64,000 nt of DNA from an uncultured Verrucomicrobiae bacterium (GTDB taxonomy: Bacteria > Verrucomicrobiota > Verrucomicrobiia > Chthoniobacterales > JAFAMB01): positions 10,137-74,136 of the forward strand of contig CAWAIK010000020.1 in NCBI GenBank assembly GCA_963782115.1. Reading direction: 5' to 3'. The notes below the pieces were generated by a model. The model saw nothing but the letters and a program-made list of their open reading frames with translations. It did not search any database and was not told the DNA's origin. Positions 5,252-61,218 of the stretch are shown here, piece after piece. Position 1 is the stretch's first letter, and the number at the start of each line of letters is the position of its first letter. Both the position numbers and the translations under genes were made by a program.

Positions 5252-7059
5252 GTGCGCTTCCAGATGGGAGGCCGGTTCACTCGCAATTTTTGCATTATCG
5301 CGCATATCGATCACGGGAAAACGACGTTATCGGATCGGCTGCTCGAGATGACCGGAACCATCGAGGAGCGGGACAAGCAGGATCAGTTGCTCGATTCAAT
5401 GGATCTGGAGCGGGAGAGGGGTATCACGATCAAGGCGCACCCCGTGACCATGAAGTATGTGGCCAAGGACGGGCATACCTACCGGCTGAATCTTCTTGAT
5501 ACTCCGGGTCACGTCGATTTTGCCTACGAAGTCTCTCGCAGCCTGGCGGCTTGCGAGGGGGCTGTACTGGTAGTGGATGCGGCCCAGGGGGTGGAAGCCC
5601 AAACGGTGGCGAATGTGCATCTCGCCATGAAACAGAATCTGACGATCATCCCGGTGATTAATAAGGTCGATCTCCCAAATGCCGATGTTCCGACGGTCAA
5701 GAAGCAACTCGAAGATATCCTGACGATTTCTGCGGATGAAGCAATCCTGGCCAGCGCAAAGACGGGGCTCGGGGTCGAAGATGTGCTGGAAGCGATTGTT
5801 CATCGCGTCCCTGCGCCGAAACCGATGACTGACGGGAAACTGAGAGCGCTGGTTTTTGATTCGATCTTCGATGTCTATCGAGGGGTAGTCGCCTATGCGC
5901 GGGTTTTCTCGGGAAGCCTGGTCGCTGGTCAGGGAGTCAAACTGATGAGAACCTCCAATCATTACGAAATCAAGGAGGTGGGCATATTTACGCCTAAACC
6001 GCTGGCTCAGCCCAAGCTCGACGCGGGTCATGTCGGTTATTTCATCGCGAATATCAAGTCGACGACCGAGATCAAGATCGGAGACACTTTAACGGACCAG
6101 CGAAACCCAGCTCTCGAACCGTTACCTGGCTTTCAAGAGATTCATCCGATGGTGTTCAGTGGGATTTATCCGATCAACACCGCGGATTTCGAGCATTTGA
6201 AGACGGCGTTGGGCAAACTGCAGATCAATGATTCCGCTTTTGTCTATCAAGCGGAAAGTTCGGTTGCCCTTGGGTACGGTTTCAGATGCGGGTTCCTTGG
6301 ATTGCTCCATATGGAAATCGTGCAGGAGCGTCTGAGGCGCGAATTCGATATGGACATCATCGCGACCTACCCGAGTGTCGTTTATCACGTTTTGAAGACG
6401 AGCGGGACTCTGGCTGAAGTCGATAATCCTTCGTTTTTGCCTGATCCGAGCGTCATTGAGGAGATTCGGGAGCCGGTGGTAAAATGTTTTGTGATGTGCC
6501 CGAACGAAAATATCGGGGACATGATGCAGTTGATGATGGAGAAGCGGGGAGAATTGAGCATACCGAATCGCTCGACACCCGTCGGGTGATGTTGACTGCC
6601 GTGATGCCGCTCAATGAGATCCTGGTCGATTTTAATGACAAGATCAAATCGCTGACGCATGGCTACGGTTCGATGGACTACGAGCAGAGCGGCTATCGTG
6701 CGGCGGATCTGGTCAAGCTCGATCTGCTGGTCAATGGGGAACCCGTGGATGCCTTCTCGAGTATCGTGCATCGGGACAAAGCCGAAGGGCGCGGCCGGAT
6801 TCTTGCAGCGAAACTGAAGGAGGTTATTCCGCAGCAACTCTTTCAGGTCGCGATCCAGGCTGCCATCGGCGGGAAAATCATTGCGCGTGAGAATGTTGCT
6901 GCCTTGCGGAAGAACGTGACTGCAAAATGTTATGGCGGCGACATCACTCGCAAAAGGAAACTGTTGGAGAAGCAGAAAGAGGGTAAGAAACGGATGAAAG
7001 CGATCGGGAGAGTGAATATCCCGCAGGAAGCATTTATTGAAGTTCTCAAAACCAACTGA
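5252..7059 (+). pseudogene. lepA: elongation factor 4 (LepA), one frame break near 6550-6560
   Basis: ORF 5252-6589 has NFCIIAHIDHGKTT, DTPGHVDF, NKVD and runs to ...MMEKRGE. ORF 6484-7059, in another frame, continues ...[40 protein letters not shown]...[22 protein letters not shown]. The switch lies in GGAGAATTGAG, consistent with one A missing from an A-run. Alternative start ATG at 5264. Confidence 0.9.
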
Positions 7060-8165
7060 TGTTTACGCCCAAATACATTGAAGAGGGCCGCGCTCTGGCA
7101 AAGGCGGCACGAAAAGTAATTAACTATCGAAAAGATGTTGCACGGCCTGACGATCTCGAACGAGTTCGGCAGAATCTTGCCGGACTGACGGAAGCGCTGA
7201 AAAAGCGATCGAGCGAAGGTGTGCAAAGGGCCGAAAAAGAACTTCTTCCCTCGTTGGGCAAACTTCAACCGCTCCGCGATCTGAGCAGCATTCGGGAGAA
7301 CGTGGAGCTGATTGTTGTGGCGATCGTTCTGGCGCTTGGTATCAGGGCCTATTATCTCCAGCCCTTCAAGATCCCCACCGGCTCCATGCAACCGACTCTC
7401 AATGGGGTGATTGGGCACCGTACCGAGGCGCCGCCGCCCAATATCATCGTCCGCGCGTTTCAATTTGTTACGCTTGGCCGCACTTACGAGGATGTGGTCT
7501 CCGAGGAGCCGACAGATTCGATCGATTCAATCTCCCCGGCAAAGGTAAACCCATTCTGGGATGGCTCGGTGATTAGAATGTCTTCCGGAAGAATCTACCG
7601 AGTGGGAATCGATCCGAGGTCCCTGGAAGACCAGATGCGTGTCGGCCCGGGCCAAAGTTTTAAAAAGGGCGATCCGATTGTCCGCGGTTACGCCGATCTT
7701 GGAGATCAACTCTTTGTCGATAAATTCAGCTACAACCTCTTCGGGCCGCATCGGGCGGACGTCTTCGTTTTCCGAACCAATGGAATCCTCGGGATTCCTC
7801 CCGGACCGAATCTTGAGAGCGAGCATTATATCAAACGCTTGGCTGGCCTGCCGGGTGACACTTTGCGGATTCAGCAGCCCAAGCTGTTCGTGAACGGTCA
7901 GGAAGCGAAGGAATATGGATTCGTGCGTGTGGCATCTCAGCAGAATGGCTACACTGGCTATCGAAACATTCCAAGAGATACGATGTATTTAGGTGACGCC
8001 AATGCCACCGTTACGATTCCAAAGGGGAGTTATTTCGCGTTGGGCGACAACAGTGCAAACAGCTATGACAGCCGGTACTGGGGATTTGTCCCGTGGCAGA
8101 ACGTGGTGGGACGAGGAATGTTTGTTTATTGGCCGTTCTCGAGCCATTGGGGATTTGTCAGATAG
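7059..8165 (+). CDS. lepB: signal peptidase I
   Basis: 368 aa. N-terminal TM segment, catalytic-Ser box PTGSMQPTL, Lys box YIKRLAGLPGD, C-terminal GDNSANSYDSRYWGFVP. The ATG overlaps the lepA stop (TGATG). Confidence 0.85.
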   Translation: MFTPKYIEEGRALAKAARKVINYRKDVARPDDLERVRQNLAGLTEALKKRSSEGVQRAEKELLPSLGKLQPLRDLSSIRENVELIVVAIVLALGIRAYYLQPFKIPTGSMQPTLNGVIGHRTEAPPPNIIVRAFQFVTLGRTYEDVVSEEPTDSIDSISPAKVNPFWDGSVIRMSSGRIYRVGIDPRSLEDQMRVGPGQSFKKGDPIVRGYADLGDQLFVDKFSYNLFGPHRADVFVFRTNGILGIPPGPNLESEHYIKRLAGLPGDTLRIQQPKLFVNGQEAKEYGFVRVASQQNGYTGYRNIPRDTMYLGDANATVTIPKGSYFALGDNSANSYDSRYWGFVPWQNVVGRGMFVYWPFSSHWGFVR

Positions 8166-8179
8166 CAGGAGTCAGAATT

Positions 8180-8201
8180 CAGGAGTTCAGGAGTTGCGGA
8201 A
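8180..8201. repeat. left arm of inverted repeat flanking the four-helix-bundle gene
   Basis: CAGGAGTTCAGGAGTTGCGGAA matches the reverse complement of 8646-8667 at 21 of 22 positions. It is embedded in short tandem CAGGAGT(T)-like units (8166-8201). Confidence 0.8.
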
Positions 8202-8213
8202 TTTATGAGTGGC

Positions 8214-8568
8214 TCATCGGTTGGACTCGATTGCGCTGGCGTAGGCAACAAGCAGCTTGGAGACCTCTTCCAGAACGGCCTCCATATCTGCTGTGGCACC
8301 GTATCCCAAATCCTGAATCAGAATCAGATAATATCGGCATTCTTCGAGGGAGCCCTGTGCGACATTGAGAAACCGTGTTTTGTCACTCAACCCGCGCTTC
8401 TTGAATCCTTCTGCGATATTCGCTGGAATCGAAATCGCCGCGCGGCGCATTTGGCTCGTGAGGCAATAGATCTCACTTCTTGGAAAGCTTGCCGTGAGTG
8501 AATAGGTCGCCAGTACGAATCGATGGGCCTTTTGCCTAGTCCTTGAATGTCTTTGCTGGTTTTGCCAT
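8214..8568 (-). pseudogene. four-helix-bundle protein (23S rRNA intervening-sequence protein family), frame broken after ~10 codons
   Basis: The tracked 78-aa ORF (MRRAAISIPANIAEG...GSLEECRYYL) lacks the family's N-terminus. The same frame upstream reads ...TRQKAHRFVLATYSLTASFPRSEIYCLTSQ but has no start codon. ATG at 8568 gives MAKPAKTFKD-stop in another frame. The expected FKDL.VWQKAH junction is collapsed to GAC-TAGG-CAA, implying a small deletion. Confidence 0.6.
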
Positions 8569-8645
8569 GCGGTGGGAAATTGAATTATTTACATAACAAG
8601 TCAACACAATGTTGTACAATCCGCGATTAATTCGATCGTTTCCCA

Positions 8646-8667
8646 TTCTGCAACTCCTGAACTCCTG
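8646..8667. repeat. right arm of inverted repeat flanking the four-helix-bundle gene
   Basis: TTCTGCAACTCCTGAACTCCTG, followed by further (A/C)ACTCCTG units to about 8685. It is the reverse complement of 8180-8201. Confidence 0.8.
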
Positions 8668-8721
8668 CGACTCCTGAACTCCTTCCTCGCGCATGCTGAG
8701 ACCTCCGCTACCGGTTGGCAG

Positions 8722-51642: not shown

Positions 51643-52418
51643 TTGACGAACCGTATCGTTGGGTCGAAGCGATTTCTAATCGCCGTGAATATATCGAGAA
51701 CGAGCTTGCCACGGGGAGTCCGACGATTGGATTGAGTTTTTCCGATGGGATCCTGCTCCTGACCTTCGGACGTGACCGGCGAAAGATCTTTGAGGTTTAC
51801 GACCGGATTGCGATGGGCGGCATCGGACATCCGGGCGATATTGAACGATTGCGGATGATGGCGATTGAGCTGGCTAGCACCGAGGGATTTACTCGCTCTG
51901 CCGGGGACGTATCGCTCCGTCGCATGGCGACCTACTCTTTTAGTCCCGCGCTCAAACAAGCGTTTGAGCAAATTTACGGCGCGCCGTATCTGGCGAGAAT
52001 TCTGTTTGCCGAAATAGGGGAAACGGAAGAGTCCGATCTTTTTGTCCGCCTCGATTATGACGGTTCGATGCACGCAAACTCCATGCGTGGCGGGGAGCGT
52101 CGCGAAAATTTTGGAGCTATCGCAGGGACTCGCCGTGGGCTGGAGCAGGTGGAAGGAGCCTTGAGTCGTGCAAAAATCTCGAATCTGCAAAGTGCTGTGG
52201 AAGCTGCTGTTCGAGGCTGGGGAGCCGGACTCTACGCCGCGGGCGAAGATCATGCGAATGTTCCTGAAGAATCGGTCCTGAAGGAATTTGTGAAATCGCG
52301 TTTGGAAAAATACAGCATCGAAGCCGCTTTGCTCGAGCGAAGCGTCCTTTCGTCGCATGCCGCGTTCGTGGAAGTTCCGGAGTCCGATCTGGAAGCTGTG
52401 CTGGCCAAGTTCCGCTAG
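51639..52418 (+). CDS. prcA: 20S proteasome alpha subunit (PrcA-like)
   Basis: 259 aa overlapping prcB by 4 nt (ATGA). ...GSPTIGLSFSDGILLLT...IFEVYDRIAMGGIGHPGDIERLR... with no N-terminal Thr nucleophile. Confidence 0.8.
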   Translation: MIDEPYRWVEAISNRREYIENELATGSPTIGLSFSDGILLLTFGRDRRKIFEVYDRIAMGGIGHPGDIERLRMMAIELASTEGFTRSAGDVSLRRMATYSFSPALKQAFEQIYGAPYLARILFAEIGETEESDLFVRLDYDGSMHANSMRGGERRENFGAIAGTRRGLEQVEGALSRAKISNLQSAVEAAVRGWGAGLYAAGEDHANVPEESVLKEFVKSRLEKYSIEAALLERSVLSSHAAFVEVPESDLEAVLAKFR

Positions 52419-52425
52419 TGTCCTC

Positions 52426-53172
52426 ATGAGAAATGCGCTGCTATTTATTTTGGGGTTTTTGTTGGCGAACCCGCTTTGGGCGGACGATCTCACCCGATCC
52501 ATTCAACAGCGATTAAAAGATCAGGGCTTTTACTACGGTGAGGTCGATGGCCAGGGAGGCGACGAGACGTCCGCAGCGATCCGGCGTTACCAGATCCGTT
52601 ACGGGCTCAAAGTGACAGGGCAGTTGAACGATGAAACTCTGCGCTCGCTTGGCATGACGCGCAATAGCTCTGCACGACCCGCGCCTGGATACCAGGAGAA
52701 CGAAGGTCCCTCCAGCGGGCAACCCGACGACCAATATTACCGGCAGCCGCCCATGCAGAACTATGGCCGGCCACTTCCACAACCCGAAGGTTCCGAGGAT
52801 TACAATGAGATGCGGCCGCCCCCATTTGTGCCTCCTGGAGTCGTGACTTCCTTCCCACGGCTTTACGCCGGCACAATATACGAACGGTCCCCGCCTCAAG
52901 TTCAGGAAAATGTCCTCTACGCCGTCCAGGGTGAATTGATGAGAAGGGGCTTTTTCAGGGGTATTATCGACGGGCGGCCGGGCCCGGCCACTTCGGACGC
53001 CATCCTACGATTGCAGCAAGAAGACGGGTTGCCGATGAGCGGCAGGCTTGACAACGAAACTTTAAACGAATTGAGAGCGTTTCCAGGGCAGCGCAATGGC
53101 CCGCCCGAGGAAGGTTTTCGGCGATGGCCCGGTAGGCAGCGGATCTACCGGGATTTCCCAGAGCCGTTTTGA
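52426..53172 (+). CDS. secreted protein with two peptidoglycan-binding (PG_binding_1) domains
   Basis: From ATG at 52426: a signal peptide, then IQQRLKDQGFYYGEVDGQGGDETSAAIRRYQIRYGLKVTGQLNDETL and VQGELMRRGFFRGIIDGRPGPATSDAILRLQQEDGLPMSGRLDNETL, separated by a Pro-rich linker. Confidence 0.7.
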   Translation: MRNALLFILGFLLANPLWADDLTRSIQQRLKDQGFYYGEVDGQGGDETSAAIRRYQIRYGLKVTGQLNDETLRSLGMTRNSSARPAPGYQENEGPSSGQPDDQYYRQPPMQNYGRPLPQPEGSEDYNEMRPPPFVPPGVVTSFPRLYAGTIYERSPPQVQENVLYAVQGELMRRGFFRGIIDGRPGPATSDAILRLQQEDGLPMSGRLDNETLNELRAFPGQRNGPPEEGFRRWPGRQRIYRDFPEPF

Positions 53173-53275
53173 TTGGCGAGTTTTACTTTTTGCATAGCGG
53201 CGGCAAAACGTAAGAGTCGAAAGTTCTAATTCAGGCTTGCAGCTTGCGTCCCGGTGGATTTCGAATTGCGCGGGT

Positions 53276-54577
53276 ATGGAAGCGATCATTGAATCACTTG
53301 GGGAATGCCGGTTTTCATCGCCTTTGCGGCATCGGCTTGCTGGGATAGACGGATTTCGAACTGAAGACAGCCGCGTAATCTACGACGATTCGATGGAGGG
53401 CGTCCGCGACATGTTCGAACGCGGGCTAACTCCTCTCCATTTCGAAATGGCCGGGCCGCGCGAGAGAATTTACTTTGATCCGGGAAAAACATCCGCGGCA
53501 ATTGTGACATGCGGAGGGCTCTGTCCGGGGTTAAACGACATCATCCGGGGCATCGTGATGGAGCTCTATCACAGGTACGGCGTCACTCGGATATTCGGCC
53601 TTCGTTACGGTTTTGAAGGGCTGGTACCGCGCCTGGGGCATGTTCCCCTAGCGCTGAGACCGGAATCCGTTTCCACGATTCACACCTTTGGCGGAACAAT
53701 CCTTGGCAGTTCCCGTGGTCCGCAGGACGCGGGTGAAATGGTGGATCACCTGGAGGAACTCGGCGTCGATTTGTTGTTTATCGTTGGAGGGGATGGAACG
53801 CTGCGGGGAGGCCAGAAGATCAACGCTGAAATCCGCCGGCGAGCCAGCAAAAAGTCCGTGATCGGAATTCCCAAGACTATCGATAACGACATCATGTACC
53901 TCGACAAGAGCTTTGGATTTGACACGGCTTTTGCCGAAGCTGTGAAAGCGGTGGCGTGCGCTCATGTTGAAGCAGTGGGGGCCATGAACGGCATTGGTTT
54001 GGTGAAACTGATGGGTCGTCATTCGGGATTCATTTCCTGTTACGCGGCTCTGGCGGGACAACACGTCAATTATTGCCTGATCCCCGAGGTGGCTTTTGCT
54101 CTCGAGGGCCCCTCCGGTTTACTTGAGACGCTCAGGTATAGACTGGCAAAGCGAAGGCATGCGGTGATCGTGGTTGCAGAGGGCGCCGGTCAGGATTTGA
54201 TGAATATCAACTCGTCGGAAAAGGACGCGTCCGGTAACATCAGGCTGGGGAATATCGGCGAATTCCTGAAAGATAAGATTGCTGAATTTTTCAAGAAACG
54301 GCGGATCGAGGTGAACTTGAAATATTTTGATCCAAGCTACACGATCAGGAGCGTGCCGGCGTCGGCGCAGGATAACGTCTATTGCCTGCGGCTGGCCCAG
54401 AACGCGGTTCACGCGGGCATGGCCGGTAAAACCGGCATGTTGATCGGCCAGTGGCACAGCACGTTTGTTCATATTCCGATCGAACTTGTCACCCAGGGGC
54501 GTCGCAGAGTCGATCCGTCCGGGGATTTGTGGCAAGCGGTATTGGAATGTACGGGGCAAGCAGTCAGAATGTCGTGA
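53276..54577 (+). CDS. pfkA: 6-phosphofructokinase (ATP-dependent type by GGDG motif)
   Basis: AAIVTCGGLCPGLNDIIRG, LFIVGGDGTLRGG, GIPKTIDNDI, LMGRHSGF. Start taken at ATG 53276 (the ORF track begins at TTG 53237). Confidence 0.85.
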   Translation: MEAIIESLGECRFSSPLRHRLAGIDGFRTEDSRVIYDDSMEGVRDMFERGLTPLHFEMAGPRERIYFDPGKTSAAIVTCGGLCPGLNDIIRGIVMELYHRYGVTRIFGLRYGFEGLVPRLGHVPLALRPESVSTIHTFGGTILGSSRGPQDAGEMVDHLEELGVDLLFIVGGDGTLRGGQKINAEIRRRASKKSVIGIPKTIDNDIMYLDKSFGFDTAFAEAVKAVACAHVEAVGAMNGIGLVKLMGRHSGFISCYAALAGQHVNYCLIPEVAFALEGPSGLLETLRYRLAKRRHAVIVVAEGAGQDLMNINSSEKDASGNIRLGNIGEFLKDKIAEFFKKRRIEVNLKYFDPSYTIRSVPASAQDNVYCLRLAQNAVHAGMAGKTGMLIGQWHSTFVHIPIELVTQGRRRVDPSGDLWQAVLECTGQAVRMS

Positions 54578-54681: not shown

Positions 54682-55671
54682 ATGAAACGTTGGATCCTTG
54701 CGTTTGCAGCACTCGCCGCGTCCGGTCTGGTCGCCTCGTCGATAGTCGATGTGGCTTCTGCAGCCGACGCTAAAAAATACACCATTGCCCTGATCCCGGG
54801 GCTTACCACCGATGCGTTCTATATCACGATGCACAAGGGTGCCGAAGCAGCCGCTAAAGCCCTGGGTGTGACCCTCGTCTTTCAAGGTGCCGCCGACTTC
54901 AACCCTGTGACACAGGTCCCGGTGTTGAACGCGATCATTGGCCGGAAACCGGACGCCATTTTGATCGCTCCGACCGATAAAGTGCAGTTGGTCGGCTCTC
55001 TGAAGAAGGCCGTAGATGCGGGCATTCCTGTTCTCACCGTCGACACGTTCATTGGAGACGGTCATTACCAGACCGGAAGTGGCGACGCTGATTTTCCACT
55101 CTCTTACATTGCGTCTGACAACATTCTCGGTGGCGAGATCGCCGCACGCGCGTTGGCAAAAGCTATCGGGGATAAAGGGAAGGTCTATGTTTCGAATGTG
55201 AGGCCGGGCATATCGACGACTGATCAGCGCGAGGAAGGCTTCAAAAATGAAATGAAAAAACATCCGAACATCACCGTCCTGGAAACGCAGTTTAATGATG
55301 ACGACGCGAACAAGGCTGCCTCTCAGTTCCAATCGGTTTTCGCTCGCAACTCAGATTTGAACGGTGTTTTTGGCGCAAATCTTTTTTCGGCAATGGGTGC
55401 TGCGAACGGCGTGAAGCAGAGTGGGGGAACAGGGAAGGTGAAAGTGGAGGCATTTGACGCGCCAACTTCAATCGTGCAGGAGATCAAGGCCGGGAACGTG
55501 GATATCGCCATCGCTCAGCATCCCTCCGAGATAGGATATTTTGGGGTGGTCGCGGCCTATGCGCATCTGACCGGCCAGTCGATCCCCACATTGATCGGAA
55601 CCGGATTTACTGTCATTGACAAAGACAACGTCGATGATCCCAACGTGAAACGCTTCATCTATTCGGATTAG
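54682..55671 (+). CDS. sugar ABC transporter periplasmic binding protein (RbsB-like)
   Basis: 329 aa with a signal peptide and periplasmic-binding-protein type I pattern (...YTIALIPGLTTDAFY...PVLTVDTFI...ASDN..GG..AA..L...). Confidence 0.8.
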   Translation: MKRWILAFAALAASGLVASSIVDVASAADAKKYTIALIPGLTTDAFYITMHKGAEAAAKALGVTLVFQGAADFNPVTQVPVLNAIIGRKPDAILIAPTDKVQLVGSLKKAVDAGIPVLTVDTFIGDGHYQTGSGDADFPLSYIASDNILGGEIAARALAKAIGDKGKVYVSNVRPGISTTDQREEGFKNEMKKHPNITVLETQFNDDDANKAASQFQSVFARNSDLNGVFGANLFSAMGAANGVKQSGGTGKVKVEAFDAPTSIVQEIKAGNVDIAIAQHPSEIGYFGVVAAYAHLTGQSIPTLIGTGFTVIDKDNVDDPNVKRFIYSD

Positions 55672-55760: not shown

Positions 55761-56789
55761 GTGACGACTACGGAAGCAGTGCCCAACGCTCCAAAGCAGA
55801 TTCGCTGGCTGGATTTTCTAGCGGCGTTTCGAGCATGGCTTTTTCTGGGGATTCTTTTGATCACCTTCGAGATCTGGGCCCATGCGGAGTACCATGCCAC
55901 GTTTTTTCTGAATCCGTTTAACGTCAAATCCATCGCGGTCTTCACTGTAACTCCGCTGTTGCTGGGTCTCGGCCAAACCTTCGTCATTATTTCGGGCGGG
56001 ATTGATTTGTCCGTCGGATTCACGATGGGCCTCTCTGCGGTTGTCACGGCGCATGTTTTCAATTGGGGCGCCCAGTTCGGCAATCCAGTTCTGAGCCTGC
56101 TGCTTTCCGTTTTTGCCGGTTTGGGGATTGCAGTCGTGCCGGGGGTGATCAATGGATTGCTGATAGCCGATCTCCGGGTACCTCCTTTCATCGGGACGCT
56201 AGGGATGTACGGCGTTGCCAGAGGAGTGGCATTCTTGTTAGCCAGGGGCACCACAGTTCCTGTGCAGGGCGGGCTTTTGGGCGCGATCGGCAATGGCGAA
56301 ATTGCAGGGTTTCCCAACCTGGTCCTGCTGACCATAGCCATCCTGCTGGTGATGCATTATCTGCTGTCTCAAACGCGTTATGGACAGCACATCTACGCGA
56401 TTGGCGGTAACGTGAATGCCGCTCTCCGGGCCGGGATCAATGTTCGGAACAATACCATCGCCTTGTACATTCTTTCCTCGCTCACTGCGGGATGCGCCGG
56501 GATTCTTTATACCGCCAAATTTTCCGCGGGTGCGGCTCAGGCCGGCGAACCAGTTTTGCTGGACAGCATCGCAGCCGTGGTCATCGGGGGAGCCAGCCTC
56601 TTCGGGGGTTCAGGCACAGTCGTCGGGACTGTCATTGGCGCACTGATTATTGCGGTGATTCAGTACGGGCTCGTATTCGTGAACGTCGAACCGTTTTGGC
56701 AGTTTGTAGCTGTCGGCGTCGTGATCATCATTTCAGTTCTCGTCGACCAGGTTCAGAAACAGGTTGGAAAGGATGGTCCGAATGGATAG
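55761..56789 (+). CDS. sugar ABC transporter permease (RbsC/AraH-like)
   Basis: 342 aa, about 10 TM helices: ...TFVIISGGIDLSVG..., ...YAIGGN..AA..AGI... GTG start. Confidence 0.8.
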   Translation: MTTTEAVPNAPKQIRWLDFLAAFRAWLFLGILLITFEIWAHAEYHATFFLNPFNVKSIAVFTVTPLLLGLGQTFVIISGGIDLSVGFTMGLSAVVTAHVFNWGAQFGNPVLSLLLSVFAGLGIAVVPGVINGLLIADLRVPPFIGTLGMYGVARGVAFLLARGTTVPVQGGLLGAIGNGEIAGFPNLVLLTIAILLVMHYLLSQTRYGQHIYAIGGNVNAALRAGINVRNNTIALYILSSLTAGCAGILYTAKFSAGAAQAGEPVLLDSIAAVVIGGASLFGGSGTVVGTVIGALIIAVIQYGLVFVNVEPFWQFVAVGVVIIISVLVDQVQKQVGKDGPNG

Positions 56790-57534
56790 CATGGCTGCGC
56801 CTTCGCCGCTGCTCGAGGCGGAAAAGGTATCAAAGCGATTCGGTGGCGTCCATGCACTGAAAGAGGTTTCTCTGACACTTCATTCGGGCGAAGTTCTGGC
56901 CCTCGCCGGAGATAATGGAGCAGGCAAATCCACACTGATCAAAATCATTTCCGGGGTTCACCACGCAGATGGAGGCAGCTTGCGATACGCAGGCAGGGAG
57001 ATAAAATTCGATAATCCCCAACAAGCACGCGATTGCGGAATCGAAACGATTTACCAGGATCTGGCGCTGGCCGATAATCTGGACGTCGGCGCAAACGTGT
57101 TTCTGGGACGCGAACCGGTGCGTAGGATCTTCGGACTGCCTGTTATCGACCGGCGTCTGATGCGCGAGGAGGCGGAGAAAACATTGCGCGCGCTCGACAT
57201 CCATATCCATCGGCTCTCCAATCCGATTCGGTCACTGTCGGGCGGCCAACGCCAATCGGTAGCAATCGGCCGTGCGATTCATTGGAAGGCTCGCGTGCTG
57301 ATCATGGATGAACCTACCGCGGCCCTTGGAGTACCGGAGCAGAGGAAGGTGATGGAGCTCATCACCAACCTCAAAGGGAGCGGCGTGGGTATTATCTTTA
57401 TCTCACACAACCTGATCGACATCTTTCAGGTTAGCGACCGCATCATGGTGCTGCGGAGAGGCTCGAAAGTAGGCGAGGTTCGGACCGCGGGAACCAACTC
57501 GGATGAAATCGTTCGCCTGATGGTAGGCGGGTGA
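56773..57534 (+). CDS. sugar ABC transporter ATP-binding protein (single NBD)
   Basis: Walker A GDNGAGKST, signature LSGGQRQSVAIGRA, Walker B VLIMDEPTAAL, H-loop SHNL. Overlaps the permease stop. Confidence 0.85.
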   Translation: MVRMDSMAAPSPLLEAEKVSKRFGGVHALKEVSLTLHSGEVLALAGDNGAGKSTLIKIISGVHHADGGSLRYAGREIKFDNPQQARDCGIETIYQDLALADNLDVGANVFLGREPVRRIFGLPVIDRRLMREEAEKTLRALDIHIHRLSNPIRSLSGGQRQSVAIGRAIHWKARVLIMDEPTAALGVPEQRKVMELITNLKGSGVGIIFISHNLIDIFQVSDRIMVLRRGSKVGEVRTAGTNSDEIVRLMVGG

Positions 57535-57536
57535 GC

Positions 57537-57702
57537 GGCGGCGTTCGGCGTTCAGCGTTCAGCGTTCAACGTTCAACGTTCAGCGTTCAGCGTTCAACGT
57601 TCAACGTTCAACGTTCAACGTTCAACGTTCAACGTTCGGCGTTCGGCGTTCAACGTTTAGCGTTCAACGTTCGGCGTTCACCCTTCGGCGTTCAGCGTTC
57701 GG
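57537..57702. repeat. heptanucleotide tandem array A: (RRCGTTC) x ~23
   Basis: Read directly: GGCGTTC GGCGTTC AGCGTTC AGCGTTC AACGTTC AACGTTC ... Only AA/AG/GG variants occur at the first two positions, with two imperfect units near the 3' end. It starts 3 nt after the ABC ATPase stop. All three frames are open (the 'SAFSVQRSTF' pseudo-peptides). Confidence 0.95.
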
Positions 57703-57760
57703 TGTCGCGTCAGAACATCGATACCGCCATCGACTTCTTCCGCGTGAAAGCGATGCGCCC

Positions 57761-57791
57761 AACGCCGAACGCTGAACGCCGAACGTTGAAG
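57761..57791. repeat. heptanucleotide array B, left stub, opposite orientation (GAACGYY)
   Basis: AACGCC GAACGCT GAACGCC GAACGTT GAAG runs up to the IS junction. It is continuous in register with 59654 onward once the IS and one TSD copy are removed. Confidence 0.85.
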
Positions 57792-59653
57792 CGCATGTTC
57801 ACATGGTTTTGTATTCTAATAGCGCCCGTAAGTAGCTCATATTTAACGACTTGACCTGTTTTCTTGGAGCTTCCTCCTTGTGGCTACTTTTACACCTCGA
57901 CTGCGGAAAACCGTTGGCAGCCTCACGCCGGCCAGTTCGATGAGTTTGGCGACATCGGCGGATGGTTCCGGAATCGTCAGACAGCTTGTTTGATCGGCAA
58001 GCATCACTTCAACCAAGCAAAGGGTGCTTAGTTTTTTAAGTCCTTCCTGAACCGTCAAGTTCAGTGTCTGCCAACGCCGCGCTAATTCGTGCACTAAGCG
58101 ATAGGCTAACATGACGACCAATGCATGACCACGAGTGCTTTTTTCCAGTTGCACATAGATGGGGCGCATTTCCAGTTCCACCGTTTTAGAGGTACGAAAA
58201 GCCTGCTCTACTAAGGTCAGGTCTTTGTAGCGATCATGCACCAGTTCTTTACTGGCTTGTGCTGCGCTCAGATCAGTCTTGAGCACGTAACAGCCATCGA
58301 GCTTGGCTTGTTCATTTCGTGCGGACTCATCGATCTGTAATGCCACGCAACGAGCCTTGCCGCACTTGACTTCAACCCAGCTCTGAAGCTTCAACTTTTG
58401 GACTTCCTTGCTCAGAGTCTTGATCACCGTTTGAGCTTTGGCTCGTGGGTGAGCGCTCAAATAGGCATTGCTTTCATTTACTTTGTCTTCAAGGCGGCCC
58501 AGTTTGTTGGCGCGAGTGGCATCCATCTCAGCCGCCCGTTTAGGATTACGCCGCAAGATATAGCGGACCTGTTCTTCACTGACCTCGGCCAAAGGCTGAT
58601 CGAACAACTCCACCTGCAACACTTTTGTATTGAGTAGTGACTCTATCTGCGGCTTGGTAATCGCCGTGATATAATGCATCCCATGCTCGCTCAAGTGCTC
58701 GATTTGAGGGATCTTAAGCATGCCTCGATCTCCGACAAAGGTCACGGATCCGCCGCCAAAATGGCCGACTATTTTTTTTACCTGCGAAGCGACCGTCTTG
58801 GGATCGGAAGTATTGCCGGCAAATACTTCGATTGATAAGGGTATCCCTGCTTGGTCGCACAACAGGCCAATGACAATCTGCATCTTTCCAGACTTGGCAT
58901 CACGGTTATAGCCAAAGGTTCCGAAGTGATTGTTGCTCCCCTCCAGATAGCTGCTTGTGATGTCGTAGAGAAAAAGCGCCGGTTTTTCGCCAGGGTGCAA
59001 GACCTCAAAAAGCCGTGTTTCAGTTCGATGCTGATGTTCTGTGAGCCAGGCCAGATTAGAATAAAGATCATCCTCATTGAAAGCATCCAACTTGAGCAAA
59101 TCGCAGCAGGCATGGGTTTGAGCCAGGCGCACCGCACTGAGGCGCGAGCCCTGATCAATGACTCGGGCGATGACTTGCCAGAGAGCCAGCTTACCTTCCC
59201 GGTCTGTTCCCAACGCCTTAACCAGGCCAAGTTCCCGGGCCAGGGCCTCCAGGACTGCTACCGCGCCGATGCTTAAGCCCTGTCGCAGAGTGACATTGGG
59301 GTTGAGTTGAGCATTTTCCCGAAACGCGGCTAAGTCGTGTTTGTGCTGCAAGGCGAGTTTGATCGCCGCGATTTCCTGATCTGAACACTTGGAGAGATTG
59401 GCAATGGTGCGGTGCTTAACCTTGCCATCCTGGCGATAGGATTCGCGCAGCAGAACACGTATATAGACCTTATTGCCAGAGCGGACTTTACAGGTGTCGA
59501 GATACATTGTGTGCACCCAACATAACTATAACTCGTTTATTGTAAAGAATAAATGTCATTTATTTTACTATAATTAGTGGCTACATTTTAAGCGTAAAAA
59601 TCGTATATCATATTTAAAATGAATGACTTACATCATTTTGCTAAAGGAACATC
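57792..59653 (-). mobile_element. IS1634-family-like insertion sequence (~1.86 kb) with 8-bp target duplication CGTTGAAG
   Basis: CGTTGAAG occurs at 57784-57791 and 59654-59661. The ends are AT-rich with short inverted termini (..CATGTTC / GAACATC..). GC is visibly lower than the flanks. It contains one intact transposase ORF. Confidence 0.75.
57843..59516 (-). CDS. IS1634-family (IS4-related) DDE transposase
   Basis: 557 aa. The N-terminus MHTMYLDTCKVRSGNKVYIRVLLRESYRQDGKVKHRTIANLSK matches the characteristic IS1634 N-terminal pattern (...nGk.Y..lveSyR..GKv...tl.nLg). ...LFLYDITSSYLEG..., ...VGDRGM..., ...YKDLTLVEQAFRTSK.... Confidence 0.75.
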   Translation of the reverse strand: MHTMYLDTCKVRSGNKVYIRVLLRESYRQDGKVKHRTIANLSKCSDQEIAAIKLALQHKHDLAAFRENAQLNPNVTLRQGLSIGAVAVLEALARELGLVKALGTDREGKLALWQVIARVIDQGSRLSAVRLAQTHACCDLLKLDAFNEDDLYSNLAWLTEHQHRTETRLFEVLHPGEKPALFLYDITSSYLEGSNNHFGTFGYNRDAKSGKMQIVIGLLCDQAGIPLSIEVFAGNTSDPKTVASQVKKIVGHFGGGSVTFVGDRGMLKIPQIEHLSEHGMHYITAITKPQIESLLNTKVLQVELFDQPLAEVSEEQVRYILRRNPKRAAEMDATRANKLGRLEDKVNESNAYLSAHPRAKAQTVIKTLSKEVQKLKLQSWVEVKCGKARCVALQIDESARNEQAKLDGCYVLKTDLSAAQASKELVHDRYKDLTLVEQAFRTSKTVELEMRPIYVQLEKSTRGHALVVMLAYRLVHELARRWQTLNLTVQEGLKKLSTLCLVEVMLADQTSCLTIPEPSADVAKLIELAGVRLPTVFRSRGVKVATRRKLQENRSSR

Positions 59654-59951
59654 CGTTGAAGGTTGAACGCCGAACGTTGAACGCCGAACGTTGAACGCTG
59701 AACGTTGAACGTTGAACGTTGAACGCTGAACGTTGAACGTTGAACGTTGAACGCTGAACGCCGAACGCTGAACGTTGAACGCTGAACGTTGAACGCTGAA
59801 CGCTGAACGTTGAACGCTGAACGTTGAACGCTGAACGCTGAACGCTGAACGTTGAACGTTGAACGTTGAACGCCGAACGTTGAACGCCGAACGTTGAACG
59901 CCGAACGTTGAACGCGGAACGTTGAACGTTGAACGTTGAACGCTGAACGCC
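59654..59951. repeat. heptanucleotide tandem array B, main part: (GAACGYY) x 41
   Basis: I counted 41 consecutive units from 59665 (GAACGCC GAACGTT GAACGCC GAACGTT GAACGCT ...), with only TT/CT/CC variants plus one CG. It is the reverse complement of the array A unit. It ends ~60 nt before the ECF sigma start codon. Confidence 0.95.
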
Positions 59952-60011
59952 AAGTCTCCGAGAAACCGCTTCGCATCGAGGAGGTGTCGCGAGTATCCTT
60001 TGGACACGAGT

Positions 60012-60590
60012 ATGGAACCTGATCAGGCAAAAGAACTTGAAGCGCAGATCGAGCTTTTGCAACGGGTCGGTCAGGGAGATCGCGGGAGTTTCGAGGAGCT
60101 TTACGATCGGCTTTCGGGCGTCTTGTTTTCCACGGCTTACCGCGTGCTGAACAATCCGCTGGCCGCCGAGGACGTGCTGCAGGATGTCTTCATCCAGATC
60201 TGGGAAAAGGCGCCGCTTTACAATCCGACCCTCGGCAAACCGCTGACTTGGGCAGTGACGCTCACGCGCAACAAGGCCATCGATCGCCTGCGCTCGACGC
60301 AGCGCCGCGATCGGTTGCAGGACAACATGCAGCGCGAATCGGAGATATACGAGCAGTTCGACGACCGGAGTTCCTTCGACGCGGTCGCCTCGCTGGAGAC
60401 GCGCCAGCTGGTGCGCAAAGCGATTGAGAAGCTCTCGCAGGACCAGCGCCAGGTGATCGAACTCGCGTTCTTTTCCTCGATGACCCAGACGGAAATCGCG
60501 GAGCTTCTCAACGAGCCGCTCGGGACCATCAAGGCGCGCATCCGGCGTGGTATGCTGAAGCTGCGGGATATGATTAGCCAGGAATTGTAG
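60012..60590 (+). CDS. ECF-type RNA polymerase sigma factor (sigma-70 family group 4)
   Basis: Region 2 is FEELYDRLSGVLFSTAYRVL.N...AEDVLQDVFIQIWEKA. Region 4 is LSQDQRQVIELAFFSSMTQTEIAELLNEPLGTIKARIRRGMLKLR. Confidence 0.85.
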   Translation: MEPDQAKELEAQIELLQRVGQGDRGSFEELYDRLSGVLFSTAYRVLNNPLAAEDVLQDVFIQIWEKAPLYNPTLGKPLTWAVTLTRNKAIDRLRSTQRRDRLQDNMQRESEIYEQFDDRSSFDAVASLETRQLVRKAIEKLSQDQRQVIELAFFSSMTQTEIAELLNEPLGTIKARIRRGMLKLRDMISQEL

Positions 60591-60642
60591 CGATATCGGC
60601 GGAGAAGAGACAGTGTCTGCGATTGCCCGGCAGAGTTTCAGT

Positions 60643-61218
60643 TTAGGCCGGGATGCGCTTGGCGAACTCGCGTTCTCGGGCGACGAGCCAGAGTGGCTGA
60701 CCCACTCCGTCAAGGATCGGCGTGATAGCTATATCGACCCAATAAGGCTCACCGTTCTTGCGATAATTGAGGATGGCCTCATGGCACGGCCGGCATTCGT
60801 GTACCGCTCGGCGCATCCGCTCCGCTGTTTCGCGATCGGTTTTCTCGCCCTGCAAAATCGGGCCGAGCGTTTTCCCGCGCAGTTCTTCGAGCGTGTATCC
60901 ACACATCGCGCTGAAGGCGGGGTTGATCCATTGCACCAGGCCCTCCGGGCCGGACACTACCAAACTCTCCGTGCTCCCTTGTTGGGGGCGATCGCAGAGC
61001 GTGCCCAAAACCCGAGCCTTGAGTCCCGACGAAGGCCCAAACTTGGCTGGACGCAACGCCGCGAGCGTGACGGCGACGCCGATTTCGGCCAATCCGACTG
61101 CGAATTCCCTGAGTTCATCATGGAATTCGAGCACCAATTCAAACTGTTCCCGTTCCTGCGGCGACATGGCGCCCGACACGTAGAGCGCGGCTCGTTCCTG
61201 AAGGAATTCGGCAATCAT
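60643..61218 (-). CDS. anti-sigma-factor-like N-terminal region fused to a PAS domain
   Basis: The N-terminus ...AALYVSGAMSPQEREQFELVLEFHDELREFAVGL resembles RskA/ChrR-type anti-sigma N-termini. The C-terminus ...GLVQWINPAFSAMCGYTLEELRGK....ILQG..TD......M...V....P....ILNYRKNGEPYWV is a PAS fold. Convergent with the sigma gene. Confidence 0.6.
   Translation of the reverse strand: MIAEFLQERAALYVSGAMSPQEREQFELVLEFHDELREFAVGLAEIGVAVTLAALRPAKFGPSSGLKARVLGTLCDRPQQGSTESLVVSGPEGLVQWINPAFSAMCGYTLEELRGKTLGPILQGEKTDRETAERMRRAVHECRPCHEAILNYRKNGEPYWVDIAITPILDGVGQPLWLVAREREFAKRIPA

Follow-up and report, generated by a model that had tools for sequence, protein, structure and literature searches.

Giant opposed heptamer arrays upstream of an extracytoplasmic function sigma factor gene in an uncultured Verrucomicrobiae bacterium

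We analysed a 64,000-nt stretch of DNA (hereafter the window) from an uncultured soil Verrucomicrobiae bacterium (contig CAWAIK010000020.1), in which two opposed tandem arrays of one heptamer, 23 RRCGTTC units (array A) and 46 GAACGYY units (array B), lie between a sugar-type ATP-binding cassette (ABC) transporter operon and a gene for an extracytoplasmic function (ECF) sigma factor. The locus is an extreme, lineage-specific instance of a known but unexplained class of opposed heptamer arrays. It is well supported that the giant arrays arose through lineage-specific expansion of a pre-existing opposed mini-pair by slippage. Taken as a package, we lean with modest confidence towards a hyper-expanded intergenic stem-loop that lacks an open reading frame (ORF), has simple sequence repeat (SSR) arms of slippage origin, and plays a role at the RNA level as an RNase III target or insulator. 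With arms of ~160 and ~320 nt, the locus represents an extreme case of a repeat class that has been on record since 2007.

Array anatomy and hairpin potential

A preliminary description of the window, made from the sequence alone, had proposed two opposed arrays of a single heptamer, and both Tandem Repeats Finder (TRF) and unit-by-unit reading bear this out. Its counts of 23 units in array A and 41 in the main part of array B stand, with the limits of array A now placed at 57540–57700, the spacer measured at 59 nt, and array B totalling 46 rather than ~47 units. TRF reported period-7 arrays at 57541–57700 (22.9 copies, 86% matches), 57756–57790, and 59654–59949 (42.3 copies). Read in phase, array A comprises AACGTTC nine times, AGCGTTC and GGCGTTC six times each, and two off-type units, while array B consists of four units at 57760–57787, one unit (GAAGGTT) split by an insertion sequence (IS), and 41 units ending at 59951, with TT at the variable positions in 22 units, CT in 13, CC in eight, and others in three. 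Apart from five off-type units in total, GAACG is invariant, and variation is restricted to transitions at two positions (AA/AG/GG in A; TT/CT/CC in B), as first described; the accompanying observation that TC units do not occur holds here, yet related Chthoniobacterales loci have GAACGTC as their main unit. Both arms also carry 14- and 28-nt super-periods (TRF and unit reading). At one mismatch or fewer, GAACGYYGAACGYY has 64 matches in the window versus 0.62 expected, all of them inside the array blocks.

As had been noted, the array block fills the gap between the two neighbouring genes: array A begins 5 nt past the stop codon of the ABC ATPase gene, and array B ends 60 nt before the ATG of the sigma factor gene, with AAGTCTCCGAG directly downstream of it (Table 1). 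The unique spacer, which was the whole gap between the opposed arrays before the IS arrived, forms the loop of the palindrome, and its ends resemble those of the ~380-nt interior at the orthologous site in locus L121 (by alignment; loci fetched for comparison carry L numbers). The hairpin potential is as large as had been claimed. Arms of 139–167 nt pair at 84–92% in at least 25 registers (inverted-repeat search), and an IS-free transcript folds at −370 kcal/mol, compared with −186 ± 7 for shuffles, into a near-continuous stem of ~165 bp; the folded reconstruction is approximate, with 3 extra nt at the junction that leave the conclusion unaffected. Array A by itself self-folds via its AACGTT cores. 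Rfam gave no match, and the only scores were sub-threshold miRNA-hairpin scores of 23–27 bits versus gathering scores of 70–100.

The strand that reads RRCGTTC is stop-free in every frame, as the preliminary description had stated for the whole structure, though on the GAACGYY strand TT and CT units place TGA in each of the three frames. The ORFs crossing the arrays are antisense or spurious (ORF list, Pfam); the long ones are spurious, as suspected, and run antisense to a sigma factor gene with clear Pfam support. A coding heptad-repeat protein was considered for the 361-aa ORF at 59628–60713 and rejected, since that ORF is antisense to the same gene. Such arrays call for caution in annotation: their stop-free frames yield phantom ORFs of 100–360 aa, and the arrays break short-read assemblies.

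Table 1. Coordinates of the array locus, its neighbours and a second array-flanked gene in the window.
Feature	Coordinates	Strand	Evidence
ABC operon binding protein	54682–55671		Pfam Peripla_BP_4
ABC operon permease	55761–56789		Pfam BPD_transp_2
ABC-transporter ATPase, last gene of sugar-type ABC operon	56764–57534	+	Pfam ABC_tran 1.7e-30
Array A, 23 RRCGTTC units	57540–57700	+	TRF, pattern search, unit reading
Unique 59-nt spacer (loop)	57701–57759	.	Reading, alignment with L121
Array B loop-proximal stub: four GAACGYY units and first bases of IS-split unit	57760–57790	+	TRF, unit reading
Insertion sequence, outside the repeat element proper	57791–59654	−	Pfam DDE_Tnp_1 3.2e-10
IS transposase ORF, DDE type	57843–59516	−	Pfam DDE_Tnp_1 3.2e-10
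Array B main part: remainder of split unit and 41 GAACGYY units	59661–59951	+	TRF; distal 31 nt in short-read contigs L002, L003
Conserved block GAGAAACCGCTTCGCATCG..GTCGCGAgTATCCTT, candidate sigma promoter/5' leader	59960–60000	+	Alignment of window, L121, L129, L130, L133
ECF sigma factor gene	60012–60590	+	Pfam Sigma70_r2, Sigma70_r4_2, Sigma70_ECF
PAS-domain gene, convergent, downstream of sigma gene	60643–61218		Pfam
Opposed 8-nt array, CAGGAGTT-type	8166–8195		
PF05635/TIGR02436 gene	8217–8588	−	Pfam 1.1e-30
Opposed 8-nt array, AACTCCTG-type (reverse complement)	8648–8683		

Confirmation in independent assemblies

The locus is confirmed as real and not an artefact. With its IS and an identical array B, it is also present in an independent ENA assembly (L001), and two short-read Logan contigs from other runs (L002, L003) end 31 nt into array B with identical unit variants. 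Orthologues in short-read assemblies (megahit and SPAdes contigs) carry the same R...G arrangement in miniature, complete isolate genomes hold the same array type, and the flanks are unique, unduplicated sequence. A fold-back chimera or mis-polished repeat of a long-read assembly would fit the facts that the window and L001 look long-read-assembled, that gene calls in L001 are fragmented, and that arrays are less uniform in long-read metagenome-assembled genomes (MAGs) than in short-read assemblies. Set against the agreement of the two assemblies, IS included, and the short-read confirmation of the distal array B junction, the likelihood of such an artefact is negligible. The exact unit numbers rest on long-read-type assemblies.

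Comparison of the window with L001 revealed 8 differing columns in array A (161 nt), representing 3–4 events, each either an indel or a change at the two variable positions, versus 5 differences across the remaining ~9.3 kb, with array B and the IS identical. The suggestion that the locus is a recombination hotspot is upheld by this difference between near-identical strains, by the IS insertion here, and by a truncated IS copy that abuts an array in locus L046. A recombinogenic or hypermutable palindrome at the DNA level is therefore supported.

Origin of the giant arrays

We fetched orthologous sites by their sigma factors, which are 82–90% identical. In L121–L128, the ABC ATPase gene (+) was followed by an epimerase/DUF2867 gene (−) and then by an R mini-array (GGCGTTTAGCGTTCGCCGTTC). 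A stretch of ~380 nt separated this from a G mini-array (GAACGCTGAACGCCGAACGCC), behind which came the conserved leader and the sigma ATG. Each mini-array had ~3 units, placed relative to this leader as the arrays are in the window. Locus L131 had ~4 G units and L133 degenerate traces, and no arrays were found at the orthologous site in L129 and L130. The mini-arrays have been kept at the same site across lineages ~14–17% diverged, and the interior at this site in L121 holds a divergent promoter region and no cassette. Relatives have 3–4 units per arm or none, and therefore the giant arrays are a lineage-specific slippage expansion. A single inverted duplication of a heterogeneous array would leave mirrored unit order, which was not found between the arms: the best register reached 58%, and 505 of 2000 shuffles equalled it. 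The unmirrored order and the 14- and 28-nt super-periods fit independent growth of the two arms. The history of the locus, largely documented by these comparisons, started from an ancestral opposed pair of mini-arrays of 3–4 units upstream of the ECF sigma gene. Each arm then lengthened separately through replication slippage, with some steps of 14 and 28 nt, and they reached 23 and 46 units. Meanwhile, the interior shrank to 59 nt and the neighbouring epimerase gene was lost, and a later IS insertion in the fifth unit of arm B pushed the arms 1.9 kb apart. A single orthologous site directly displays array evolution from 3 to 23 and 46 units, through independent arm growth, interior loss, and IS capture.

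A ~41-nt block just 5' of the sigma ATG, which begins 8 nt beyond the end of array B, was kept in all orthologues compared except L131, and the array-less L129 and L130 retain it. This block is presumably the sigma promoter or 5' leader; it possibly reads as a candidate ECF-like GAAAC...GTC or a candidate sigma-70-like TTCGCA-N18-TATCCT promoter. Because array-less orthologues keep the conserved block, the arrays are dispensable for the sigma gene.

L121, L129, and L131 have an intact epimerase gene, L133 has a fragmented one, and the window lacks it. In relatives, this 502-aa NAD-epimerase/DUF2867 gene lies between the ABC ATPase gene and the arrays (L121 1936–3517, the counterpart of window 57535–57539), and its loss coincided with array expansion.

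The insertion sequence in array B

That an IS splits array B was recognized in the preliminary description, and we set the limits of this ~1.86-kb element, which lies inside the fifth unit, to 57791/2–59654, with a 6–7-bp direct duplication, GTTGAA(G), at 57785–57790(1) and 59655–59660(1). A truncated copy in L046 (Verrucomicrobiae MAG MFD06435.bin.2.21), 98% identical, confirmed the right end. In that unlinked second locus (5453–6461), a 205-nt interior separates an R array of ~21 units from a G array, the truncated copy adjoins immediately, and the array/IS junction shows GGTG microhomology with the array. The IS is associated with arrays at two independent sites, through target preference or array-mediated deletion.

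GAACGYY arrays and opposed pairs in other genomes

A scan of species-representative genomes for (GAACGYY)x4+GAACG, a search that the preliminary description had put forward, returned at least 117 loci in ~12 phyla, isolate genomes included. Among the matches listed, at least 39 loci belonged to Verrucomicrobiota (counted from record titles), at least 12 to other PVC-group phyla, at least 20 to Pseudomonadota, at least 10 to Actinomycetota, at least nine to Acidobacteriota, at least five each to Gemmatimonadota and Chloroflexota, and at least 17 to others and unclassified bacteria; isolates among them were Streptomyces okerensis (20 units), Pseudomonas mangiferae (16), and a Zymobacter species (12). 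The 64-kb window holds one GAACGYY locus and the related Verrucomicrobiae MAGs MFD06435.bin.2.21, MFD00964.bin.1.257, and MFD00731.bin.1.199 at least 3–4 each. At least 15 short-read contigs terminate within an array. Placement was mainly intergenic, with ~24–26 arrays in convergent gaps, 8 in divergent gaps, and 39 between genes of the same direction, often a few nt past a stop codon; gene context came from a crude longest-ORF heuristic, of which only the coarse convergent/divergent contrast is used. Another 33 arrays seemingly inside genes were mostly cases of ORFs made by the stop-free array strand. The earlier account had counted ubiquitous SSRs of random placement and constant length as evidence against its own reading: the arrays are indeed ubiquitous, yet their length varies strongly and their placement is non-random.

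Opposed pairs of GAACGYY arrays were detected with loops of 20–45 nt (L020, L083, L104, and L117) and of ~60–460 nt (L068, L091, L046, L021, and L106), along with further opposed pairs of unrelated 6–9-nt units such as AAGGCGG/CCTTCCG, CACCGTT/ACGGTGA, and GGTAATT/AATTACC (TRF on the fetched loci). By shared k-mers across all fetched loci, ~47 pairings were opposed versus 16 direct, with many different units. Across ~110 arrays, we found no common flanking motif, ends, target duplication, or ends like those of miniature inverted-repeat transposable elements (MITEs), the only recurrence being a clade-specific GGCGCAGTCAGGACA motif. A literature search on GAACGTT-type arrays found nothing relevant published.

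The recurrent motif, GGCGCAGTCAGGACA(T)CGGTAACACTT, lies directly inside R-type arrays at unlinked loci of related genomes (L121 3548–3642, L046 5640–5733, L063 1516–1570, and L068 5399–5415), whereas L095 (1551–1580) matches only the ATCGGTAACACTT part, which adjoins the GGCGCAGTCAGGACA motif. A common segment of ~95 nt, 83% identical, lies next to the arrays of L121 and L046, and the start of the window spacer (57701–57725, GTCAGAACATCGATACC) resembles the motif. Candidate identities of this interior motif are a small RNA, a promoter, and the core of a mobile element. Very long arrays were also seen inside long ORFs on the stop-free strand at L050 4231–4681 (24 + 21 units with masked N between), L040 5797–5919, and L016 4039–4379 (46 GAACACC units). 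In L073 (1–766), nested opposed arrays have GAACGCT-type units outside and 9-mers, ACGGCAAAA/CTGCCGTTC, inside, which by their sequence would form a composite stem of two repeat units.

Association with four-helix-bundle protein genes

The most novel lead is an association of such arrays with genes for small four-helix-bundle (4HB) proteins of family PF05635 (23S rRNA intervening-sequence protein, TIGR02436). Opposed GAACGYY arrays enclose a PF05635 ORF in L021 and L106, and direct arrays flank one in L090. All six PF05635 genes in the fetched loci and the window were array-flanked, three of them by units unrelated to GAACGYY, so that these three were not selected by the search pattern. One of the six is in the window itself, between opposed 8-nt arrays (Table 1). 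There, one array starts directly behind the stop codon of a + strand gene (7059–8165), the 4HB gene is antisense to both neighbours, unlike most cassettes, and its N-terminus looks frameshifted (MAKPAKTFKD* in the other frame); this gene may be an inverted or decaying copy. The association was also seen at L020 1066–1644 and L083 2247–2693.

An independent sample of 80 metagenomic 4HB loci (L134–L213), obtained with a single-protein query, revealed the same architecture. Among loci with at least 250 nt on each side, tandem arrays lay within 300 nt upstream in 52/60, downstream in 54/60, and on both sides in 46/60, and TRF coverage was 16.5% near the 4HB gene versus 2.9% at more than 600 nt. 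Inverse complementarity of the flanks was above the 95th percentile of controls in 52/65 loci. GTTC was ~3-fold enriched upstream and GAAC ~3-fold downstream of 4HB genes, the same topology as array A, loop, and array B: upstream, three or more GTTC occurred in 22/80 loci and three or more GAAC in 3/80, and downstream the counts were 18/80 for GAAC and 3/80 for GTTC. The array period in these cassettes is 7–9, the 4HB gene pointed the same way as both neighbours in 41/48 loci, and the arrays abut host stop and start codons. One such cassette (L199 2656–5093), with opposed GTTGCGG/AACCCGC arrays, sits between groES (Cpn10) and groEL (Cpn60). In Xanthomonas campestris, an inverted pair of GGGAATC arrays likewise lies between groES and groEL (Rehm et al. 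table, PMC4692102), and a GGGAATC array overlaps the start of XCC0516 (Rehm et al. supplementary table, PMC4692102), itself a 4HB protein, whose structure has been solved (PDB 2GSC, E=1e-13).

We found no description of array-flanked 4HB genes in the searchable literature. A tentative proposal, which we consider possible though rather doubtful, is that opposed short-period arrays with a preferred polarity (GTTC-type arm, then loop, then GAAC-type arm) serve as arms in a widespread, undescribed family of co-transcribed cassettes like the intervening sequences (IVSs) of 23S rRNA, usually carrying an S23p/Avd-like 4HB gene, with the window locus and other ORF-less pairs as orphan or empty members and the arrays as functional parts. 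If so, the cassette arrays could serve as RNase III processing sites, 4HB-protein binding sites, or means of spread, and the accumulation of heptamer repeats in bacteria would be linked with the role of S23p-family proteins. If the link is functional, heptamer arrays and S23p proteins would be jointly testable in culturable organisms such as Xanthomonas, where XCC0516 abuts a GGGAATC array. The relation of the window locus to the 4HB cassettes appears to be architectural, and we do not claim descent.

Comparison with known repeat systems

The inverted double-array architecture, which the preliminary description took to be new, has precedents beyond the ~47 opposed pairings reported above. In Xanthomonas, 186 GGGAATC arrays are ~90% intergenic, lie on average 28 nt from the upstream ORF, occur twice as frequently in convergent-gene gaps as in divergent ones, and form 70–75 convergent pairs on opposite strands per genome, while Nostoc has the intergenic heptamer GGGGAYT (Rehm et al. 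2015, PMC4692102). Our locus resembles these SSRs in its 7-nt unit, its intergenic position near the end of the upstream ORF (5 nt here), the excess of convergent over divergent gaps, strong length variation between relatives, and opposite-strand pairs able to form stem-loops. However, the unit here is GAACGYY with a palindromic AACGTT core in place of a G-rich one, so that no G-quadruplex is possible, the host is a member of the Verrucomicrobiota, the arrays reach 23 + 46 units compared with a usual 4 and maximum of 26, and the GAACGYY unit spans ~12 phyla. The TAACTGA heptamer also recurs across phyla, in Beggiatoaceae, Cyanobacteria, and Bacteroidetes (MacGregor 2015, PMC4679880). TAACTGA and the cyanobacterial STRR heptamers share with our arrays a single heptamer in intergenic arrays of tens of copies in distant bacteria, but TAACTGA sets have a strong orientation and stop ~1 nt short of start codons, suggesting translational control, with one inverted case only, whereas GAACGYY arrays show no clear strand bias and lie mainly behind gene ends.

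The IVSs of 23S rRNA with an S23p ORF (Coxiella and Leptospira; PMC4990558) likewise have a long terminal-inverted-repeat stem in transcribed DNA, and that stem is an RNase III substrate. The likeness extends to L021 and L106, where GAACGYY arms enclose PF05635 genes; the window locus differs in lying outside rRNA, in having no ORF or detectable ORF remnant in its loop, and in its arms, which are tandem arrays of ~160–320 nt where the IVS stem is unique and 28 bp. REP/BIME and Correia/NEMIS elements are intergenic, co-transcribed imperfect palindromes, typically behind genes, that act as mRNA 3'-end stabilizers, RNase III targets, or insulators; they are dispersed copies of a defined 35–155-bp sequence, and Correia elements are MITE-like with target duplications. 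By comparison, the arms here are SSRs of variable unit and length without conserved ends.

Possible role of the stem-loop and alternative explanations

Read-through RNA from the ABC operon would form a very long, imperfectly paired duplex beginning 5 nt past the stop codon. Such a duplex could plausibly be cut by RNase III or act as a 3'-end barrier, insulating the sigma gene against transcription from upstream. REP and Correia-type elements act as hairpins on read-through RNA. RNase III also cuts the stems bordering S23p/four-helix-bundle ORFs in the IVSs of 23S rRNA (PMC4990558). As sigma expression would not depend on the arrays, which lie outside the conserved block of the sigma gene, they would most likely act on RNA, and cleavage by RNase III or insulation of the sigma gene from the ABC operon appears plausible by analogy. 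The suggestion that the structure might be a terminator did not hold up, because no U-tract follows array B and the locus is therefore not a canonical terminator; we detected no intrinsic terminator in or after the arrays and no sigma-70 promoter in them beyond chance. Several observations weigh against a stem-loop acting on RNA and against a hypermutable palindrome. The IS holds the arms 1.9 kb apart, leaving a long stem at present only across the IS or between array A and the 4-unit stub, and arrays in other genomes are mostly single and unpaired. The orientation of GAACGYY relative to adjacent gene ends shows no clear bias (~28 vs 23, tallied on crude gene calls), which fits a symmetric hairpin and neutrality equally. 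Array B is the same in both strains, with hypervariability seen for array A only, and the array A difference could be partly long-read consensus error.

The main rival of an RNA-level role is neutrality, that is, runaway SSRs tolerated in a dispensable gap, with a functionless hairpin whose inversion is an accident of two expanded short arrays. Dispensability is indicated by orthologues with tiny arrays or none, and the tolerated IS insertion and the absence of orientation bias relative to neighbouring genes point the same way, as does the statement of Mrazek 2007, relayed in PMC4679880, that heptamers are the commonest long SSR (5–11 nt class) in many genomes, with polymerase slippage proposed as the cause. 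Neutral arrays do not account well for non-random placement, with convergent gaps far above divergent ones and arrays often directly past stop codons, for the excess of opposed over direct pairings, for invariance at 5 of 7 unit positions across ~70 units, or for mini-arrays kept in place in lineages this diverged, and we judge neutrality fairly unlikely while taking it seriously. An empty or remnant IVS-like cassette or mobile element, in which a 4HB (PF05635) gene was deleted or a solo MITE-like stem remains, would explain why PF05635 genes lie between arms of the identical GAACGYY unit in L021 and L106 (and between direct arrays in L090), why the polarity is that of 4HB cassettes generally, why such a cassette with opposed 8-nt arrays occurs in the same window (8166–8683), and why unlinked L121 and L046 share their ~95-nt interior segment. 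No 4HB trace was found in the 59-nt spacer or in 10 other ORF-less interiors, however (hmmsearch with an 80-sequence profile; negative bit scores only), array flanks are heterogeneous without common ends or target duplications, and the orthologous interior in L121 is a divergent promoter region rather than a cassette, all of which makes a remnant improbable.

The remaining two explanations place the function in DNA. Phase-variable 7-bp promoter repeats control the Haemophilus hmw genes, and the preliminary description had raised a comparable copy-number switch of ECF sigma expression. Like the hmw repeats, array B is a tandem 7-bp unit upstream of a gene with an unstable copy number, ending 60 nt 5' of the sigma ATG, and array length varies between lineages and, for array A, between strains. 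Unlike them, it has an inverted partner and lies wholly upstream of the conserved block that presumably holds the promoter, so unit number cannot alter spacing within the block; array-less orthologues (L129 and L130) keep the block, array B is identical in two strains, and the same arrays elsewhere adjoin unrelated genes, mostly at 3' ends. To our knowledge, 46 units is also far above known switch arrays, and we consider a switch very unlikely. A protein-binding array, read at 7-bp spacing in GAAC/GTTC by a regulator, a nucleoid protein, or ECF-sigma region 4 as a decoy, has in its favour the invariant GAACG next to two variable positions, the ~3-fold enrichment of GAAC/GTTC units in the array flanks of 4HB genes across taxa, and the resemblance of GAAC to ECF −35 cores. 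We give it hardly any weight, as many opposed arrays have unrelated units (e.g., AAGGCGG, GGTAATT, GTGATTA, and CAGGAGTT), at a 7-bp period neighbouring sites face different sides of the helix, the locus has no linked candidate for a binding protein, and GAAC-to-CGTT spacing is 13 or 20 nt versus 16–17 nt in ECF promoters. Mimicry of an ECF promoter by the array was rejected on the same spacing.

Neighbouring genes and strain comparison

Outside the array block, the window (52000–54500) and L001 (1–4500) were ~89–95% identical over 52–54 kb and near-identical over 54.5–64 kb. The divergent stretch is a region of phosphofructokinase (PFK) and peptidoglycan-binding-protein genes where gene calls in L001 are fragmented, and it reflects either a strain recombination tract or local assembly noise. 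Exact-protein look-up gave no match for the ABC ATPase or the binding protein and matched the ECF sigma factor, for which we detected 5642 homologues at E<=1e-30; the best 120 of these 5642 were 75–100% identical, with source names such as Verrucomicrobia and Chthoniobacteraceae. The convergent PAS-domain protein downstream of the sigma gene (191 aa) has an anti-sigma-like N-terminus and is syntenic in all relatives, and it may be a partner regulator of the ECF sigma factor.

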